Positions 1-6,255 of a stretch of 6,255 bases of DNA are shown here, piece by piece. The notes under the pieces were generated by a model, which was not told the origin of the DNA, searched no databases, and was given only the letters and a program-made list of their open reading frames with translations. The position numbers and the translations under genes were made by a program. The stretch is from a virus. Taxonomy: Duplodnaviria; Heunggongvirae; Uroviricota; Caudoviricetes. The DNA lies in IMG/VR virus record IMGVR_UViG_2728369593_000012, positions 1 to 6,255 of that record; one strand, 5' to 3'. Position 1 is the first letter of the stretch; every line of letters begins with the position of its first letter.

Positions 1-8
1 GAATAGTC

Positions 9-200
9 ATGACCAAAGAAGAAAAAATTCTTTATTTATTCCAACTATCGGTTAAGACTCACACTGCATATCAGACTGCTGCCATGACATCAGATAAAAA
101 TTACAGTACGTCAGAAAACCCGATAGACGACATAAGCAAGCTTTACGATAAGTTCGAAGCACTACTCGATAAAAAGTTTGCTGAGGCTGGGCTTGAGTGA
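9..200 (+). CDS. Hypothetical small protein (63 aa as given). The reading frame is open back to the window edge, so the gene may be 5'-truncated here.
   Basis: ORF in the track; no obvious Shine-Dalgarno before the ATG at 9; no in-frame stop between position 1 and 9. Lies in an AT-rich segment (18 G+C in the first 60 nt by direct count). No recognisable motif. Confidence 0.3.
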   Translation: MTKEEKILYLFQLSVKTHTAYQTAAMTSDKNYSTSENPIDDISKLYDKFEALLDKKFAEAGLE

Positions 201-426
201 TTGTTGAATAATCGACAAAACCCAACTTAAATTTTCGTCAGTGGGCTCGATGCCATGTGCGGTGAGCTCACTTTTCAAAACTCCAAGCAATTCAGAGCTG
301 ATTTTCAATATATCTGCTTGATTTCTAACTATTCCCACTTTTCCTCTCTTGGTCTACGCGCGGTCATGTTTTACGCCCAAACGACTTCACAGTTATTGTT
401 TAAAATCTGGACTTTCATTTTGTTCT

Positions 427-648
427 TTAACCTCCAGATTTCCGCGCATCTAAAGGCGCATTCTCATTTGGTGTGAACTGAATAGTTGTGCTGATATTGA
501 TTAATGCCCCGACACACAAGACTACGCACTCAGAGCAGATAGCAACTTCATCTTTTCCGCCTTTGGCGATGATTTTTTTTGCCTGCAGCTCGTTTGCGCC
601 ACAAAACGAGCATGTGAAATAACGGTTCATTTGCGCTCTCTTACACAT
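427..648 (-). CDS. ClpX-type C4 zinc-finger (ClpX N-terminal zinc-binding domain-like) small protein
   Basis: Translation contains FTCSFCG...KKIIAKG...VAICSECVVLC, which aligns by eye with the E. coli ClpX N-terminus (LLYCSFCGK...KLIAG...VYICDECVDLC): two CxxC pairs with conserved spacing. An alternative start at the second Met (ATG ending at 630, MNRYFTCSFCG) is preceded by a weak GAGAG SD-like motif; the ATG at 648 has none. First gene downstream of the putative leftward promoter. Confidence 0.6.
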   Translation of the reverse strand: MCKRAQMNRYFTCSFCGANELQAKKIIAKGGKDEVAICSECVVLCVGALINISTTIQFTPNENAPLDARKSGG

Positions 649-801
649 AGTATTTAACGAATCATCCGGTCATTCATACGCCACCGGCGGCTACTTCGTG
701 GGCGTCCTGCCTGTTCGTTTTTGACATTTACTGACTGCTTACGACACATGCACCGTGTTGCAACCAGATTTTGTTGTAATCCTGTAGTTGGTCTGGAACA
801 A

Positions 802-859
802 AAGATAAAATTAAATTGCGAGATATGCAAGTGATATTTGCGGGATATGCAAATTGATA
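802..859 (-). promoter_or_regulatory. OL-like operator pair with putative leftward pL-type promoter
   Basis: Two tandem 15-bp sites, TTGCGAGATATGCAA (816-830) and TTGCGGGATATGCAA (838-852), inside a ~21-bp direct repeat; same TTGC-N7-GCAA dyad as the cI/cro intergenic site at 1619-1633. On the minus strand a -35 TTGCAT (830-825), 17-bp spacer and -10 TATCTT (807-802) can be drawn; the promoter assignment is tentative. Confidence 0.4.
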
Positions 860-862
860 GGT

Positions 863-886
863 AATAAAAAGCCACCTTTCGGTGGC
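863..886 (-). terminator. Rho-independent terminator downstream of cI
   Basis: Plus strand aaaaaGCCACCtttcGGTGGC (866-886); on the minus strand this reads GCCACC-GAAA-GGTGGC followed by TTTTT, 20 nt after the cI stop codon (906-908). Confidence 0.55.
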
Positions 887-905
887 CGATGGAAGGATAT
901 TGAGG

Positions 906-1598
906 TTAATTATGTCTCTTAAGGGTTTGCGACTGACTGATTAAGACCTTTCCAAAGACCATGAATCGGTGTTCGTTTTCGCTAGTAATTCCCCATTCAC
1001 GGTAAATCTGGTTATCAGAAATCACCAGCAGTTTGTCAGGAATCATTTGAAGTCTTTTAACGTATATTTTGTCATCAAAACCAAAGACATATATACCATC
1101 ACCATCAAACTGATTGATGCTGACATCAACGAAGATGAGATCTCCTGGCTCAATGGTTGGACACATACTGTCCCCACGAACGTTGATAACTTTGATGTGA
1201 TTGGCTGGTCGTCCGCCGAACATTGATACAGCATTATCAGTTCTGTATTCGATGGCATGAATCACATCAATGACATCACCGCCCTGGATAAGGCCATTTC
1301 CCGCACTGGCACTGATATCCAGCATTTCAATACGGAACACATCCTTCACCTGCGCAACATCCTCATCATTACTGTTTTTATATACAGTATTACTTTTGTG
1401 GGCAGAGGTAAAGAGATCAGCAATATCAACACCTAAGCTCTTGGCAATATTACTCAGTGTTTGTTCGGTAAATTGTTTTTGCTTACCCGTTTCTAAGCGC
1501 GAGATGTTCGCCGCATCTACTCCTATTGCTTCAGCGAGATCGGCGATTTTCATGTTCTTCGCTTGGCGAAGTTGTCTGACTCGGTTTCCTATGTTCAT
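906..1598 (-). CDS. cI: CI-type phage repressor (N-terminal XRE-family HTH, C-terminal S24 LexA-like autopeptidase domain)
   Basis: 230 aa. N-terminus has an HTH pattern (KIADLAEAIGVDAANISRLETG). C-terminus has the S24 signature GDSM (Ser144) and KRL (Lys181), and a candidate Ala-Gly cleavage site at SASA-GNG (A99-G100). Divergent from a cro-like gene, typical of lambdoid immunity regions. Confidence 0.9.
   Translation of the reverse strand: MNIGNRVRQLRQAKNMKIADLAEAIGVDAANISRLETGKQKQFTEQTLSNIAKSLGVDIADLFTSAHKSNTVYKNSNDEDVAQVKDVFRIEMLDISASAGNGLIQGGDVIDVIHAIEYRTDNAVSMFGGRPANHIKVINVRGDSMCPTIEPGDLIFVDVSINQFDGDGIYVFGFDDKIYVKRLQMIPDKLLVISDNQIYREWGITSENEHRFMVFGKVLISQSQTLKRHN
1370..1389. promoter_or_regulatory. 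Near-consensus SOS (LexA) box inside the cI coding sequence
   Basis: TACTGTTTTTATATACAGTA: perfect CTGT-N8-ACAG core with TA flanks and an AT-only spacer, matching the E. coli LexA box consensus TACTG(TA)5CAGTA at all conserved positions. Lies in codons 70-77 (linker) of cI. Only such site in the window. Confidence 0.5.
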
Positions 1599-1695
1599 GC
1601 GTTTATTACATTTCTTTATTGCGTGATAAGCAAATCAACTTGCGCAAAATAATTGCGTGAAATAACATGCATAACGCGCAATATTTGGAGGGCGT
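1599..1695. promoter_or_regulatory. Divergent cI/cro operator-promoter region (OR-like, with pRM-like and pR-like promoters)
   Basis: 97-bp intergenic region between divergent cI and cro. Operator-like dyads: TTGCGTGATAAGCAA (1619-1633) and, in reverse orientation, ATGCATAACGCGCAA (1667-1681); further TTGCG/CGCAA half-sites at 1640-1647 and 1653-1660. Candidate leftward promoter: -35 TTGCTT (1633-1628) and -10 TGTAAT (1610-1605) on the minus strand. Candidate rightward promoter: -35 TTGCGC (1640-1645) and -10 TAACAT (1663-1668). Confidence 0.6.
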
Positions 1696-1956
1696 ATGCA
1701 ATCACCATTACGAAATGTGCGTAAGGCGCATGGTTTCACTTTGCAGCATGTTGCTGCGGGTGTTCAAGTCAATCCAGCGACGTTGAGTCGTATTGAGAGG
1801 CTGGAGCAGATTCCATCTATCGAGCTTGCAGAACGTTTAGCCAATTTTTTTAAGGGTGAAGTCAGCGAAATGCAGATTCTTTATCCGGCACGTTTTCAAT
1901 CTAGCCAAAACCAGAATGGGTTTAAACCACAGGAACAGGAGGTGAACCGTGGGTAA
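1696..1956 (+). CDS. cro: Cro-like XRE-family HTH transcriptional regulator
   Basis: 86 aa; ATG preceded by GGAGG (1687-1691). HTH pattern FTLQHVAAGVQVNPATLSRIE. Divergent from cI. 3' end overlaps the next gene by 8 nt. Confidence 0.75.
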   Translation: MQSPLRNVRKAHGFTLQHVAAGVQVNPATLSRIERLEQIPSIELAERLANFFKGEVSEMQILYPARFQSSQNQNGFKPQEQEVNRG

Positions 1957-2500
1957 GCATCACTGGAAAGTAGAAAAACAGCCTGAGTGGTACGTGAAAG
2001 CTGTCAGAAAAACTATCGCAGCGTTGCCGGGGGGGTACGCTGAAGCTGCTGACTGGCTGGATGTAACAGAGCACGCATTATTTAACCGCCTTCGTGCCGA
2101 TGGCGATCAGATTTTCCCGCTGGGATGGGCAATGATTTTGCAACGTGCTGGTGGAACTCACTTCATTGCTGACGCTGTGGCGCAGTCTGCAAATGGCGTC
2201 TTTGTGTCTCTTCCTGATGTCGAGGATGTGGACAACGCCGATATCAACCAACGCCTGCTGGAAGTCATTGAACAGATCGGCAGTTATTCAAAACAGATTC
2301 GTTCAGCAATCGAAGACGGTGTAGTGGAACCGCATGAGAAGACAGCAATTAACGATGAGCTGTACCTCTCAATTTCGAAGCTGCAGGAGCATGCAGCTCT
2401 GGTCTACAAAATCTTTTGCGTTTCAGAAAGTAGTGACGCCCGCGAGTGTGCAGCTCCGGGCGCCGTGGCGTGTCGTGACTGTGGAGAAACTAACGCATGA
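1949..2500 (+). CDS. CII-like / YdaT-like phage regulatory protein (lysis-lysogeny regulator analogue)
   Basis: 183 aa; GTG start at 1949 preceded by AGGAGG (1937-1942); an in-frame TGA at 1943-1945 prevents upstream extension. Positioned immediately after cro, as in cI-cro-cII (lambda) and racR-ydaS-ydaT (Rac/CP-933P) modules. Family assignment is from recollection of YdaT/CII-like proteins, not a search. Confidence 0.55.
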
Positions 2501-2658
2501 ACAGTTTAACAACACACTACCGTCGCTCGCAACTGATTGCGCTTCCTGTACCGGGTGGAAAAGCGAAGGTGGAGTATTGCTATGCAGTAAATGTACCAGG
2601 TGACAGGGAAATTGTAACCCACAGCTTTGTCAGAGTGGGCGTGTGGGTGGATTTCTAA
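2497..2658 (+). CDS. Hypothetical small protein (53 aa), not in the supplied ORF track
   Basis: ATG at 2497 overlaps the upstream TGA stop (ATGA, 2497-2500), suggesting translational coupling; GGAG at 2483-2486. Translation [53 protein letters not shown]; stop TAA at 2656-2658. Confidence 0.35.
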
Positions 2659-2679
2659 CCGGCAGAAGGAGACAGTCCT

Positions 2680-2859
2680 TTGCGACAAGTTAACCGCTGG
2701 TTCAAAGATCACTACGGAGTGCCCGTCAGAGTCATTCGTTGGGAGCCGGAAACACAACGTGTTATCTACCTCCGCGAAGGCTATGAGCATGAGTGCTTCA
2801 GCCCGCTCGAACAGTTTCGTCGTAAATTCAGGGAAATAGAGGTCGGTCATGAGCACTAA
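2680..2859 (+). CDS. Hypothetical small protein (59 aa), TTG start, not in the supplied ORF track
   Basis: Strong SD AAGGAG (2666-2671) 8 nt upstream of TTG at 2680. Translation (M)[58 protein letters not shown]; stop TAA at 2857-2859, overlapping the start of the replication gene by 11 nt. Same frame as 2497..2658, separated by a single TAA. Confidence 0.35.
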
Positions 2860-3790
2860 ATTAACCGGCTATGTATGGGATGGTTGCGCTGCATCAGGCA
2901 TGAAATTATCCAGCGTGGCAATTATGGCCCGCCTGGCTGATTTCAGTAATGACGAAGGTGTGTGCTGGCCATCAATTGAAACCATTGCCCGCCAGATTGG
3001 CGCGGGAATGAGTACCGTCAGAACGGCTATCGCACGGCTGGAAGCAGAAGGCTGGTTAACGCGTAAGGCGCGTCGCCAGGGTAACCGCAATGCGTCGAAT
3101 GTTTATCAGCTTAACGTTGCGAAGCTTCAGGCAGCGGCATTTTCTCAACTGTCAGATTCTGACCCGTCAAAATCTGACGCATCAAAATCTGACCCGTCAA
3201 AATTTGATGCGTCGAAATCTGGCAAAAAAGCGGGTTTTCACCCGTCAGAATCTGGCGGGGATCCGTCAGTAAAATCAAAACATGATCCGTCAGATAAAAA
3301 AACTTCTCGTCCGGACGCTTCGCAACCGGACACGCAGACGGCTGAACAGGAGTTTTTAACTCGCGATCCTGATGCGGTTGTATTCAGCCCTAAAAAGCGC
3401 CAGTGGGGAACGCAGGATGATTTGACCTGCGCACAGTGGCTCTGGAAAAAAATCATCGCCCTGTACGAGCAGGCCGCCGAATGTGACGGCGAGGTGGTTC
3501 GTCCCAAAGAACCGAACTGGACAGCCTGGGCAAACGAAATTCGCCTGATGTGTGTGCAGGATGGTCGTACTCATAAACAAATCTGCGAGATGTACAGCCG
3601 CGTCAGTCGCGATCCGTTCTGGTGCCGTAACGTGCTCAGCCCGTCGAAGCTGCGGGAAAAATGGGATGAGCTTTCCCTGCGCTTATCGCCGTCCGTCAGC
3701 ACGTACACCGAAAAACGCGAAGACCCGTACTTCAAAGCCAGTTACGACAACGTGGACTACAGCCAGATCCCGGCAGGATTCAGGGGGTGA
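2849..3790 (+). CDS. Phage replication initiation protein (N-terminal winged-helix DNA-binding domain; O-like / DnaT-like C-terminal region)
   Basis: 313 aa; ATG with GAGG 5 nt upstream. N-terminal pattern ARLADFSNDEGVCWPSIETIARQIGAGMSTVRTAIARLEAEGWL is typical of phage replication-initiator HTH domains. Low-complexity linker encoded by the iteron array. Occupies the O-gene position after cII. The C-terminal homology is recalled, not searched. Confidence 0.65.
   Translation: MSTKLTGYVWDGCAASGMKLSSVAIMARLADFSNDEGVCWPSIETIARQIGAGMSTVRTAIARLEAEGWLTRKARRQGNRNASNVYQLNVAKLQAAAFSQLSDSDPSKSDASKSDPSKFDASKSGKKAGFHPSESGGDPSVKSKHDPSDKKTSRPDASQPDTQTAEQEFLTRDPDAVVFSPKKRQWGTQDDLTCAQWLWKKIIALYEQAAECDGEVVRPKEPNWTAWANEIRLMCVQDGRTHKQICEMYSRVSRDPFWCRNVLSPSKLREKWDELSLRLSPSVSTYTEKREDPYFKASYDNVDYSQIPAGFRG
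3151..3300. repeat. Iteron array (putative phage replication origin) inside the replication initiator gene
   Basis: Four tandem 15-bp units at 3158-3217 (TCTGACCCGTCAAAA / TCTGACGCATCAAAA / TCTGACCCGTCAAAA / TTTGATGCGTCGAAA), plus further CCGTCAG copies at 3241-3249, 3262-3269 and 3286-3293 in both orientations. Internal dyads GTCAGAtTCTGAC (3151-3163) and CGTCAaaatcTGACG. Followed by an A-rich stretch (3271-3303). Mirrors the lambda ori-within-O arrangement. Confidence 0.5.
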
Positions 3791-3792
3791 GC

Positions 3793-4281
3793 ATGAGTCT
3801 TTTGAATGACGTTCAGAAATTCATTGAAGCCCATCCGGGCTGTACTTCCGGAGATATTGCGGATGCTTTTGCCGGTTACTCACGGCAGCGCGTTCTGCAG
3901 TCAGCAAGCAAGTTACGTCAGAGTGGGCGTGTGGCTCACCGTTGTGAAGGAGATACACGCAGACATTTCCCGCGCCTGACTGAGAGAGCGCAGGAACCGG
4001 AACCACAACCAGTTCGTGAAACCAGACCTGTGCGCAATTTCTATGTCGGCACTAACGATCCCCGTGTGATTTTGTGCCTGACCCGCCAGGCGGAAGAACT
4101 GGAGTCCAGAGGCTTATACCGTCGTGCTGCAACCGTGTGGATGGCGGCATTCCGTGAAAGCCACTCCCAGCCAGAACGAAACAATTTTCTGGCGCGTCGT
4201 GAGCGGTGCTTACGGAAAAGCAGCAAGCGCGCTGCATCGGGTGAAGAGTGGTATCTGTCAGGGAATTACGTGGGGGCTTAA
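3793..4281 (+). CDS. PerC-family transcriptional regulator-like protein with N-terminal extension
   Basis: C-terminal segment AEELESRGLYRRAATVWMAAF...RRERCLRKS matches the PerC/Pch signature (GLWRRAA..RW...RR..CL) from memory. The ATG at 3793 has GGGGG 5 nt upstream (the ORF track uses GTG at 3787). Stop TAA (4279-4281) overlaps the next ATG. Confidence 0.55.
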   Translation: MSLLNDVQKFIEAHPGCTSGDIADAFAGYSRQRVLQSASKLRQSGRVAHRCEGDTRRHFPRLTERAQEPEPQPVRETRPVRNFYVGTNDPRVILCLTRQAEELESRGLYRRAATVWMAAFRESHSQPERNNFLARRERCLRKSSKRAASGEEWYLSGNYVGA

Positions 4282-4934
4282 TGAGTAATAAATATTGCCA
4301 GGCGCTGGTGGAACTGCGGAACAAACCAGCCCATGAACTGAAGGAAGTGGGCGATCAGTGGCGCACGCCGGACAACATTTTCTGGGGAATTAACACCCTG
4401 TTTGGCCCGTTTGTTCTGGATCTGTTCACTGACGGTGATAACGCCAAATGTGCCGCGTATTACACGGCGGAAGACAACGCGCTGGCGCATGACTGGTCAG
4501 AACGTCTTGCGGAGCTTAAAGGTGCTGCCTTTGGTAATCCCCCATACAGCCGCGCCAGTCAGCATGAGGGGCAATACATCACCGGCATGCGTTACATCAT
4601 GAAACATGCCAGTGCCATGCGTGATAAGGGCGGGCGCTATGTTTTCCTGATCAAAGCTGCCACCAGCGAAGTGTGGTGGCCGGAAGATGCAGATCATATT
4701 GCTTTTATTCGCGGGCGTATTGGTTTTGAACTGCCTGTCTGGTTTATCCCGAAAGACGAGAAGCAGGTACCGACAGGAGCTTTTTTCGCTGGTGCTATTG
4801 CTGTTTTTGACAAGACCTGGAAGGGACCGGCAATCAGCTACATCGGGCGCGATGAACTTGAGGCATGTGGTGAGGCGTTTCTGGCGCAGGTTCGCCAGCA
4901 GGCGGAAAAACTGGTCAGGGAGATGGCGGCATGA
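4281..4934 (+). CDS. Phage-type DNA N6-adenine methyltransferase (Dam-like, orphan)
   Basis: NPPY motif (GNPPYS), the catalytic (D/N)PPY signature of N6-adenine methyltransferases; size and gene context fit the phage Dam family. Start at ATG 4281 (TAATG overlap with the upstream gene); the ORF track's longer form begins at GTG 4248. No restriction endonuclease gene adjacent. Confidence 0.75.
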   Translation: MSNKYCQALVELRNKPAHELKEVGDQWRTPDNIFWGINTLFGPFVLDLFTDGDNAKCAAYYTAEDNALAHDWSERLAELKGAAFGNPPYSRASQHEGQYITGMRYIMKHASAMRDKGGRYVFLIKAATSEVWWPEDADHIAFIRGRIGFELPVWFIPKDEKQVPTGAFFAGAIAVFDKTWKGPAISYIGRDELEACGEAFLAQVRQQAEKLVREMAA

Positions 4935-5257
4935 CGACGTTAACTCAATGCCAGCAGCAGGTGCTGGATATGCTGATTTCTTATCAGAAAGAACGTGGCT
5001 TCCCGCCAACCAATCAGGAGGTGGCAACCATGCTGGGATACCGTTCGGTGAATGCAGCGGTGGAGCATCTTCGCGCACTGGAGAAAAAAGGCGTCATCAC
5101 GATAAAGCGTGGCGTGGCCCGGGGGATCACGCTTCATACCGCAGTGAAGGACGACGACAGCGAAGCGGTCGGGATCATCCGCGCACTGCTTGCCGGTGAG
5201 GAAAACGCAAGGCTGCGTGCAACCCACTGGTTACATGAGAGAGGCCTGAAAGTATGA
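4931..5257 (+). CDS. LexA N-terminal DNA-binding-domain-only protein (LexA-like winged HTH; no S24 peptidase domain)
   Basis: 108 aa. LTQCQQQVLDMLISYQKERGFPPTNQEVATMLGYRSVNAAVEHLRALEKKGVITIKRGVARGITL aligns by eye along its length with E. coli LexA residues ~4-70 ([65 protein letters not shown]), including the recognition helix. ATGA overlaps at both ends (4931-4934 and 5254-5257). Confidence 0.75.
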   Translation: MTTLTQCQQQVLDMLISYQKERGFPPTNQEVATMLGYRSVNAAVEHLRALEKKGVITIKRGVARGITLHTAVKDDDSEAVGIIRALLAGEENARLRATHWLHERGLKV

Positions 5258-5643
5258 AGCTGATCCTGCCTTTCCCGCCCAGCGTGAACACCTACTGGCG
5301 ACACCCCAACAAAGGGGCATTTGCTGGTAAGAGCCTGATAAGCGAGGCGGGGCGAAAATTTCAGAGCGCGGCGTGCGCAGCAATAGTTGAGCAGTTACGT
5401 CGTCTGCCAAAACCAACGTCGGCACCTGCTTCAGTGGAGATCGTGTTGTTTCCGCCGGATAACCGGATCCGCGATCTGGACAACTATAACAAGGCGCTGT
5501 TTGACGCCCTGACCCACGCGGGTGTGTGGGAAGACGACAGACAGGTGAAAAGAATGCTGGTGGAGTGGGGACCGGTTATCCCGAAAGGGAAGGTCGAGAT
5601 CACTATCAGTAAGTATGAGAAAACGGCGGGTGCAGCCGCCTGA
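5254..5643 (+). CDS. rusA: Crossover junction endodeoxyribonuclease RusA (Holliday junction resolvase)
   Basis: 129 aa; LPFPPSVNTYWRH...DLDNYNKALFDALTHAGVWEDDRQV resembles E. coli RusA (LPWPPSNNRYYRH...[25 protein letters not shown]). Typical nin-region gene of lambdoid phages. Confidence 0.85.
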   Translation: MKLILPFPPSVNTYWRHPNKGAFAGKSLISEAGRKFQSAACAAIVEQLRRLPKPTSAPASVEIVLFPPDNRIRDLDNYNKALFDALTHAGVWEDDRQVKRMLVEWGPVIPKGKVEITISKYEKTAGAAA

Positions 5644-5662
5644 TTAAGAGGAGAAACGAAGT

Positions 5663-6255
5663 ATGAATAATCTGATGGTTATTGATGGTATTGAAGTTCG
5701 TCGTGATGCTTATGGGCGTTACAGCCTGAACGATCTGCACAGGGCAGCCGGGGGAGAACAAAAAAACCGCCCGAAATACTGGCTCTCCAATAAGCAAACC
5801 TGTGAATTGATTGAACAACTTTTCACCGAGGGTGGAATTCCGCCTCTGGAACAAAATCAACCAGTTAGCGTCATTAATGGCGGAAATAACCAGGGGACGT
5901 ATGTCTGCAAAGAACTGGTGTATGCCTATGCAATGTGGATCAGCCCGTCATTCCATCTGAAGGTGATCCGTACTTTCGATATGGTAACCAGCGCACCGGA
6001 AAAATTATCCGGGCAGGCTGCTGACAAGATGCAGGCTGGAGTGATTCTGCTGGACTTTATGCGCAGGGAGTTAAACCTGTCTAACTCTTCAGTGCTTGGT
6101 GCCTGTCAGAAACTCCAGGAGGCTGTTGGCTTACCGAATCTGGCACCGCGCTATGCCATTGATGCTCCTGCTGATGCACTCGATGGCTCAAGCCGCCCTA
6201 CGCTATCATTGAGTGCACTGCTGAAGCAGTATGGTATCCGCCTTACGGCTAATCA
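5663..6255 (+). CDS. KilA-N domain-containing protein (3'-truncated at window end)
   Basis: ATG at 5663 with AAGAGGAG (5646-5653) upstream; the frame stays open to the window end, so it is absent from the ORF track. MVIDGIEVRRDAYGRYSLNDLHRAAGG...YWLSNKQTCELIEQL...GTYVCKELVYAYAMWISPSFHLKVI matches the KilA-N/APSES-type pattern. Confidence 0.7.
   Translation, partial: MNNLMVIDGIEVRRDAYGRYSLNDLHRAAGGEQKNRPKYWLSNKQTCELIEQLFTEGGIPPLEQNQPVSVINGGNNQGTYVCKELVYAYAMWISPSFHLKVIRTFDMVTSAPEKLSGQAADKMQAGVILLDFMRRELNLSNSSVLGACQKLQEAVGLPNLAPRYAIDAPADALDGSSRPTLSLSALLKQYGIRLTAN

Follow-up and report, generated by a model that had tools for sequence, protein, structure and literature searches.

Within the 6,255-nucleotide stretch of DNA analysed here (IMG/VR virus record IMGVR_UViG_2728369593_000012, positions 1 to 6,255; hereafter the window), the cI repressor gene of a lambdoid prophage was found to carry a 20-bp LexA operator (SOS box), TACTGTTTTTATATACAGTA, inside its coding sequence. 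Comparison of homologous cI genes indicates that this box is very probably a LexA operator under selection. The box overlaps a predicted internal promoter and is followed by a conserved Shine-Dalgarno (SD) sequence with an in-frame GTG codon. It is proposed that the internal promoter is repressed by LexA and, once released, directs synthesis of a UmuD-like form of CI consisting of the C-terminal domain only, which would poison the full-length repressor. Taken as a whole, this reading is given an even chance of being correct.

The LexA operator in the cI linker

The box is located between the helix-turn-helix (HTH) domain of CI and the Ala99-Gly100 self-cleavage site, at positions 1370-1389, in codons 70-77. 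Read on the sense strand of cI it is TACTGTATATAAAAACAGTA, identical to the umuDC operator of Escherichia coli MG1655 and also to the sbmC operator. It has the characteristics of a gammaproteobacterial SOS box, with a CTGT-N8-ACAG palindrome, an AT-rich centre and a score within the range of validated operators. A LexA position weight matrix was built from 18 operators of E. coli K-12 (Table 4 of PMC3009722). With this matrix the box reaches 27.9 bits, the upper end of the 13.2-28.2 bits spanned by the 18 known operators, and a scan of the rest of the window revealed no second site of at least 11 bits. The pattern TACTG-N10-CAGTA occurs once in the window. In 200 dinucleotide-preserving shuffles a match was obtained in a single shuffle, with a mean of 0.01 per shuffle. 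A preliminary description of this DNA had reported the SOS box at this place and had considered a chance match unlikely; both statements were borne out.

Selection on the box among homologous cI genes

Genome and viral collections yielded 239 loci with CI relatives, from which 128 distinct cI coding sequences were obtained (66-100% protein identity) originating from Escherichia, Shigella, Salmonella, Citrobacter, Klebsiella, Trabulsiella, Buttiauxella and metagenomes. Genes with less than 97% nucleotide identity to one another form a subset of 49 representatives. All 128 genes carry the box with a score of at least 19.5 bits, and it is likewise kept in a Lonsdalea cI copy that does not belong to the 128-gene set. 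The linker around the box is hypervariable in protein as well as in DNA. The third codon base was found to be conserved to at least 98% in only 13 of the 231 codon columns, seven of which are the consecutive codons 70-76. Codon 70 specifies eight different residues (among which Asn, Thr, Ser, Pro, Ile and Asp), yet it ends in T in 99% of the sequences. Codon 75, specifying seven amino acids (among which Asn, His, Tyr, Ser, Asp and Thr), always ends in C, and the same pattern of varying amino acid and retained third base is displayed by codons 73 and 74. Thr71 is always encoded by ACT, Val72 by GTA in 99% of the genes and Ser76 always by AGT. Residues away from the box that are invariant (Ala97, Ser98, Ala99 and Gly100) have mixed codons. 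Retention of the third base under a varying amino acid is a clear mark of selection on the DNA and not on the protein. Synonymous diversity at the box amounts to 0.02-0.12 among the 49 representatives, compared to a gene mean of 0.48, and constitutes the deepest trough in cI. Position by position, conservation within the box is correlated with the information content of the LexA motif (rho 0.63, p 0.003); directly beyond the 20-mer it breaks down. The preliminary description had pointed to the weight-matrix score and to synonymous positions in homologous repressor genes as the places where a genuine LexA site would be recognized, and the score at the top of the known range and the fixed third bases of codons 70-76 agree with this.

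The 49 representatives hold 25 different versions of the 20-mer, all scoring 20.5-29.6 bits. The box is therefore conserved at the level of the motif, which is the pattern of a protein-binding site and not that of a relic or a recombination linker. As a relic, the box, the SD sequence and the GTG codon would have been left behind by a LexA-regulated umuD-like gene that became fused to an HTH domain; as a recombination linker, the conserved island would be a crossover point for swaps of repressor domains. Neither variant involves a present regulatory role. The operator identity with umuDC and the UmuD-sized C-terminal part of CI, for which UmuD is the best match among solved structures, are in favour of such a past, and a fusion origin of cI from a umuD-like gene is plausible and compatible with the regulatory model proposed here. 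A relic would be expected to decay, while synonymous sites in cI are near saturation (0.48) and the box nevertheless remains strong in 128 of 128 genes by way of 25 variants. The internal start was moreover found to move among codons 84, 87 and 95 with different SD sequences, pointing to continuing selection, and DNA similarity to umuD is confined to the 20-mer. Domain swapping is at odds with the correlation between N- and C-terminal identities (rho 0.64), with no pair more than 15 points apart. Both variants are considered highly improbable.

More distant CI relatives, at 37-43% identity, were inspected in BTP1, PhiR34_1, Klebsiella phages 6 LV-2017 and Kp4856-1, SaltyDalty, phiMhaA1, PhiR49_2 and ST-87; none of these eight has a LexA-like site. 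The e14 prophage was rejected for comparison, its repressor YmfK being of a different immunity type; no LexA site of at least 11 bits was found in the e14 repressor gene or in the e14 region examined.

Some other observations on codon usage and SOS boxes were made in the same material. Third bases that are fixed across the 128 homologues also occur at codons 94 (window positions 1317-1319), 4, 14, 17, 45 and 172. Asp94 is encoded by GAT in 128 of 128 genes, for which no explanation was found; in many lineages this GAT is followed by G, which creates an out-of-frame ATG. Two related viral contigs harbour additional strong LexA boxes elsewhere. In contig L250 a variant of the KilA-N gene is preceded, at approximately 100 bp, by a box of 21.3 bits (6765-6784). 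In contig L252 a box of 23.1 bits (10598-10617) lies within codons 3-10 of a DNA methyltransferase gene, where it again encodes Asn-Thr-Val...Asn-Ser. Coding-embedded SOS boxes may be a recurring device in related phages.

Conserved internal ribosome-binding site and predicted nested product

An internal start was scored when an SD duplex of -5 kcal/mol or stronger was accompanied by an in-frame start codon within codons 77-98. Downstream of the box, an SD sequence with an in-frame GTG is present in 48 of the 49 representative lineages. In non-overlapping 22-codon windows of the same genes such a combination occurs in 0-33% of cases (0-10% in most windows), and resampling of synonymous codons on the same proteins gives an expectation of 14%. 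At columns 87 and 84, Val is encoded by GTG in 38 of 48 and six of six cases, respectively, compared to a GTG share of 18% among the other Val codons of the family. The internal ribosome-binding site and start are thus conserved beyond chance, as is characteristic of a nested isoform. Only one of the eight box-less relatives has an SD sequence with an in-frame start, and since the combination is found in 48 of 49 box-bearing lineages, the box and the internal start go together. Depending on the clade, the internal start is codon 84, 87 or 95, and the SD string is GAGGA, AGGAAGGA, GAGGG, GGAG or GGAGG. This shift of start position and SD sequence between clades looks like turnover under continuing selection.

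The preliminary description had assumed that a leftward transcript starting at the box would first meet Met92 of CI. This had to be revised, as two in-frame GTG codons precede Met92, namely GTG84, preceded by GAGGA (-6.4 kcal/mol), and GTG87. Its suggestion of an N-terminally truncated CI has become the reading that is best backed by the comparative evidence, i.e. the -35-like hexamer discussed below and the conserved SD sequence and GTG linked to the box. The predicted nested protein lacks the HTH domain and retains the Ala-Gly site, Ser144 and Lys181. Among solved structures it matched only UmuD and UmuD' (E ~1e-4), and its size is about that of UmuD. A search of supplements on N-terminal proteoforms of Salmonella yielded no entry for this CI protein. 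A conserved small open reading frame (ORF) in an alternative frame 3' of the box was considered as well and was rejected: starts in frame +1 are present in 41 of 49 representatives, the ORFs vary from 1 to 53 codons and their ends are not conserved.

Predicted internal sense promoter

The left arm of the box may serve as the -10 element (TACTGT) of a promoter directed towards the end of cI. A TTTAC hexamer (ending in C, A, T or G) is present exactly 17 bp 5' of TACTGT in 46 of 49 representatives, with scores at or above the 95th percentile of the background. Phe63, to which the first bases of this putative -35 element belong, is encoded by TTT in 128 of 128 genes. Outside the box the third base is invariant at just six columns, Phe63 being one of them. 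The spacer between the -35 hexamer and the box is variable in sequence and free of indels, while indels do occur just downstream of the box. The native umuDC promoter of MG1655 shows the same geometry (TTGATC-N17-TACTGT). A synthetic promoter of 47 bp, TTGACA-N17-TACTGTATATAAAAACAGTATA, ending directly after the box, is tight and SOS-inducible (PMC9074414). The internal transcript would start near position 1377, inside the box. Homology of the whole promoter region to that of umuD was also considered, and was rejected as the similarity ends at the 20-mer.

The preliminary description had proposed an internal or an antisense transcript. The sense part of this proposal was strengthened by the -35 hexamer at 17 bp and by the SD sequence with GTG, while the antisense part was not, for lack of a -35 hexamer. 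A LexA-gated antisense promoter would produce a rightward transcript of the + strand, antisense to the 5' half of cI, which would collide with the maintenance promoter, read into cro and, like OOP of lambda, tip the switch to lysis. The palindrome indeed provides TACAGT as a -10 element on the + strand, and the occurrence of OOP as an antisense RNA within the lambdoid immunity region (PMC2327240) counts for this possibility. No -35-like hexamer was found at 15-19 bp from it in any of the 49 lineages, with none above the 90th percentile and a mean -35 score of -1.5 versus -0.4 for the background. An indel is located exactly at the would-be -35 position, an extended -10 TG is absent from all lineages, and terminator prediction gave no good-quality + strand terminator nearby. 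An antisense promoter is accordingly regarded as improbable.

A roadblock or attenuator function of LexA, which had also been raised in the preliminary description, does not involve a promoter at the box. Bound LexA would hinder RNA polymerase coming from the maintenance promoter, resulting in less full-length cI mRNA in undamaged cells and more after loss of LexA, and would thereby buffer the repressor against low-grade SOS induction. A very strong operator 210 nt into the coding sequence suits this function, and selection on the box is explained equally well by it. A lone bound repressor is as a rule a poor roadblock when the transcript is being translated. The conserved SD sequence and in-frame GTG downstream of the box (48 of 49, compared to the 14% expected and one of eight box-less relatives) are not explained by it, and neither is the -35-like hexamer at 17 bp. 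A roadblock is for these reasons considered unlikely, while deserving more weight than an antisense promoter. In ST64B, cI RNA increased from 251 to 394 transcripts per million under peroxide shock, at the level of the whole gene, while lytic genes were induced (PMC7067206, Table S5). This modest rise, and not a decrease, speaks for a roadblock but fits a nested promoter equally well; it is compatible with both and not diagnostic. The STnc1310 RNA and the peroxide-induced genes of ST64B were also considered as support for the box. They were discarded, being located downstream of cI and served by a leftward promoter and not by the box (PMC7067206).

Several observations weigh against the internal promoter and the truncated product. 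The -35 hexamer is largely dictated by the conserved Leu-Phe-Thr residues, and since it is mostly forced by these residues, the independent evidence for a -35 element consists only of the choice of TTT in all 128 genes and the indel-free spacer. TACTGT is a weak -10 element. Positions 700-2000 gave no hits in a generic promoter scan, which is, however, insensitive and also missed PR and PRM. GATGTG, present in many lineages, creates an overlapping out-of-frame ATG that possibly competes with the GTG. The L182 lineage and the Lonsdalea copy have a strong SD sequence (AAGGAGG) but GTT at codon 87, with only an out-of-frame ATG. SD-like strings are favoured by the high Glu, Gly and Asp content of the linker, a bias for which the resampling controls. 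The lineages are phylogenetically related, so that fewer independent events are involved than 48 of 49 would suggest. It was examined whether the pyrimidine-rich codons 63-65 mask the internal ribosome-binding site when it is part of the long mRNA, and no specific effect was seen: the site had an accessibility of 0.41 on the short transcript and 0.30 on the long one, compared to 0.34 when the upstream sequence was shuffled. The literature searched contained no experimental report of a transcript start within cI or of a short CI protein, and no chromatin immunoprecipitation or electrophoretic mobility shift data on LexA at the cI box. The internal sense promoter with its truncated CI isoform is nevertheless slightly favoured on the comparative evidence.

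The phage-encoded LexA-domain protein

The preliminary description had further suggested a phage-private SOS circuit, because the same element encodes a protein consisting of a LexA DNA-binding domain (positions 4931..5257). This non-self-cleaving protein would bind the cI box during lytic growth. It displays 43% identity to the N-terminal domain of LexA, and because the recognition-helix residues Ser39, Asn41, Ala42 and Glu45 are kept, it could bind SOS boxes including that in cI. The two elements proved not to be linked: among 80 loci carrying the LexA-domain gene, only 24 have a box-bearing cI within 6 kb upstream. ST64B has a box-bearing cI and no annotated LexA-domain gene within 6 kb on either side of it, and the Lonsdalea prophage has the box and no called LexA_DNA_bind gene within 4 kb on either side. 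A private circuit is the least probable of the explanations considered. The -35-like hexamer and the internal ribosome-binding site with its start codon are not jointly accounted for by any of the four alternatives.

At the position of the LexA Ala84-Gly85 cleavage site the phage LexA_DNA_bind protein has Ala-Gly-Glu, yet it has no protease domain. Its gene was found with many different immunity types. The protein may be an uncleavable or trans-cleavable LexA mimic in lytic growth.

Prophage family and gene context

The window covers the immunity and early right region of the prophage and is approximately 97% identical to Shigella phage SfII; its CI protein is 99.6% identical to that of SfII. 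The coordinates of the main features are listed in Table 1. According to Pfam, CI consists of an HTH domain (residues 3-64), a variable linker and a Peptidase_S24 domain (residues 104-218). The catalytic dyad Ser144 and Lys181 aligns to Ser60 and Lys97 of UmuD. With its N-terminal HTH domain, Ala-Gly site and Ser-Lys dyad, the protein belongs to the self-cleaving S24 repressors of the CI/LexA type. Of 5426 complete E. coli genomes, 1040 (about one fifth) carry the same type of cI, which is furthermore found in Stx2-converting phages, SfV, SfIV, mEp460, Salmonella ST64B, Citrobacter phiNP and Klebsiella phages. Further genes in the window encode PerC-like, Dam, RusA and KilA-N proteins.

Table 1 Coordinates of features in the window
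Feature	Position	Strand	Remarks
Intrinsic terminator 3' of cI	870..887	-	terminator prediction; annotated as terminator in SfII
cI repressor gene	906..1598	-	230-amino-acid ORF; Pfam HTH_3/HTH_26 and Peptidase_S24
Nested ORF, predicted truncated CI	906..1349	-	residues 84-230, 147 amino acids; putative expression
Ala99-Gly100 self-cleavage site of CI	1299..1304	-	ASAG invariant in 128 homologues
Second in-frame GTG, codon 87	1338..1340	-	
In-frame GTG, codon 84	1347..1349	-	most likely internal start in the window
Shine-Dalgarno-like GAGGA	1360..1364	-	duplex with 16S 3' end of -6.4 kcal/mol for GTG84
LexA operator (SOS box) TACTGTTTTTATATACAGTA	1370..1389		last base of cI codon 70 to first base of codon 77
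Predicted -10 hexamer TACTGT	1384..1389	-	left arm of box; umuDC-like arrangement
Predicted -35 hexamer TTTACC	1407..1412	-	codons Phe63-Thr64; 17 bp upstream of -10
cro	1696-1956		
CII/CP76-like gene	1949-2500		
O-like replication gene	2849-3790		
LexA_DNA_bind-only protein, 108 amino acids	4931-5257	+	

Repeated motifs containing ATATGCAA at 760-860, in the interval separating the cI terminator from the leftward genes, are probably the left operators. The corresponding region of ST64B yields the damage-induced STnc1310 RNA (PMC7067206). A guessed CI operator pattern, TTGCG-N8-GCAA, showed no enrichment and was discarded. In the leftward early region an ORF of 73 amino acids (427-648, - strand) matches the C4 zinc-finger domain of ClpX alone (Pfam E 1.4e-10); its product might interfere with substrate or adaptor binding by ClpX. 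The O-like gene harbours six copies of the 15-bp unit TCAAAATCTGACSCR at a spacing of 15 bp (3137-3259, + strand), encoding a repetitive Asp/Pro/Ser/Lys stretch. This array probably represents replication-origin iterons within the initiator gene, as in lambda.

Proposed mechanism and significance

In the mechanism that we infer, a high-affinity operator for host LexA is written into the flexible linker of cI, where it would overlap the -10 element of an internal sense sigma-70 promoter. LexA would bind the box and shut this promoter in an undamaged lysogen, in which full-length CI, expressed from the usual maintenance promoter, would be the only form produced. When DNA damage is severe or long-lasting, LexA would be depleted and synthesis of the short transcript would become possible. 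Derepression of an operator with the strength of that of umuDC occurs late, and truncated CI is for that reason expected only under severe or persistent damage. Translation would start from the conserved ribosome-binding site at the in-frame GTG, which is codon 84 or 87 in the window and codon 87 or 95 elsewhere. The product of 136-147 residues would comprise the cleavage site and the S24 oligomerisation/protease domain, without a DNA-binding domain. The terminator 3' of cI would end full-length and nested transcripts alike. Sharing the dimer interface of CI, the truncated form could enter mixed dimers with only one DNA-binding domain, by which operator occupancy would be weakened. A LexA-gated, self-encoded antirepressor would in this way be added to the RecA-stimulated self-cleavage of CI.

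The steps of this mechanism differ in strength. The most conservative reading, namely a LexA site maintained by selection within a repressor gene, is solid on the comparative data and previously undescribed as far as was found. The nested isoform is a well-supported prediction. The antirepressor role is put forward as a hypothesis; a dominant-negative effect of truncated CI, suggested by the common dimerisation domain, is offered tentatively. With similar reserve it is speculated that induction of these prophages could need two readings of DNA damage, i.e. RecA-driven cleavage and LexA depletion acting through the gene-internal antirepressor. Neither the box nor a truncated CI was found to have been described for this prophage family in the literature searched, and the published accounts of SfIV, of phiNP and phi1720a-02 and of ST64B do not mention the box.

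If the mechanism holds, induction of these prophages would be set by LexA kinetics in addition to RecA-stimulated cleavage. Carriers of this immunity type include Stx2-converting phages, the Shigella serotype-converting phages SfII, SfV and SfIV, and Salmonella ST64B, and release of Shiga toxin from Stx2 phages would then be included in LexA-dependent induction. Models of induction thresholds, of antibiotic-triggered induction and of cross-talk between co-resident prophages would be altered as well. Furthermore, the cI gene lends itself to testing as a clean example of a protein linker that would hold a regulatory site together with a promoter and an additional start codon, and in which selection is visible per nucleotide.

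Comparison with known systems

The closest parallel is the umuDC operator-promoter. Both have the 20-bp operator TACTGTATATAAAAACAGTA, preceded at 17 bp by a -35 element and containing a TACTGT -10 element, and in both a short leader is followed by an S24-fold protein of about 140 residues with an N-terminal tail before the cleavage site. Unlike umuDC, the cI unit is nested in a larger reading frame with which it shares codons, and its predicted -35 element is TTTACC instead of TTGATC. A umuC partner is absent: the nested ORF shares the stop codon of cI, after which come the terminator and the leftward operator region.

Tum of phage 186 and AntC of N15 are LexA-controlled antirepressors. Such antirepressors have also been documented for the Gifsy prophages (PMC3121763, PMC7067206). 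As proposed for cI, LexA times the appearance of a repressor-inactivating protein in these systems. Those antirepressors are encoded by separate small genes, have folds of their own and target repressors that are not self-cleaving, whereas the candidate antirepressor of cI is an in-frame truncated copy of the repressor without a separate gene, and full-length CI keeps the Ala-Gly site and the catalytic Ser and Lys. The cI element may act like the LexA-controlled antirepressors and is not a member of those families.

OOP of lambda resembles the proposed system in that a short regulatory RNA, transcribed within a lambdoid immunity region, shifts the balance away from lysogeny (PMC2327240). It is antisense, non-coding and directed at cII, while the evidence on the cI box favours a sense orientation and a protein product. 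Krinke, Mahoney and Wulff are said to have reported in 1991 that the OOP promoter is under LexA control.

Nested isoforms are known from the repressor gene c of phiC31 and from the Tn5 inhibitor, in which the full-length form is modulated by an N-terminally shortened protein, produced by means of a promoter and an in-frame start codon within the gene. The nested ORF of cI resembles both. To our knowledge, no nested isoform is gated by a consensus LexA operator in the coding sequence, and none derives from a CI/S24-type repressor. HumD of phage P1 is a phage-encoded, SOS-linked S24 protein of the UmuD' type that functions in translesion synthesis. HumD and the predicted nested product of cI are both phage-borne UmuD-like S24 proteins, the former encoded by a free-standing gene of its own and the latter by the repressor gene itself.

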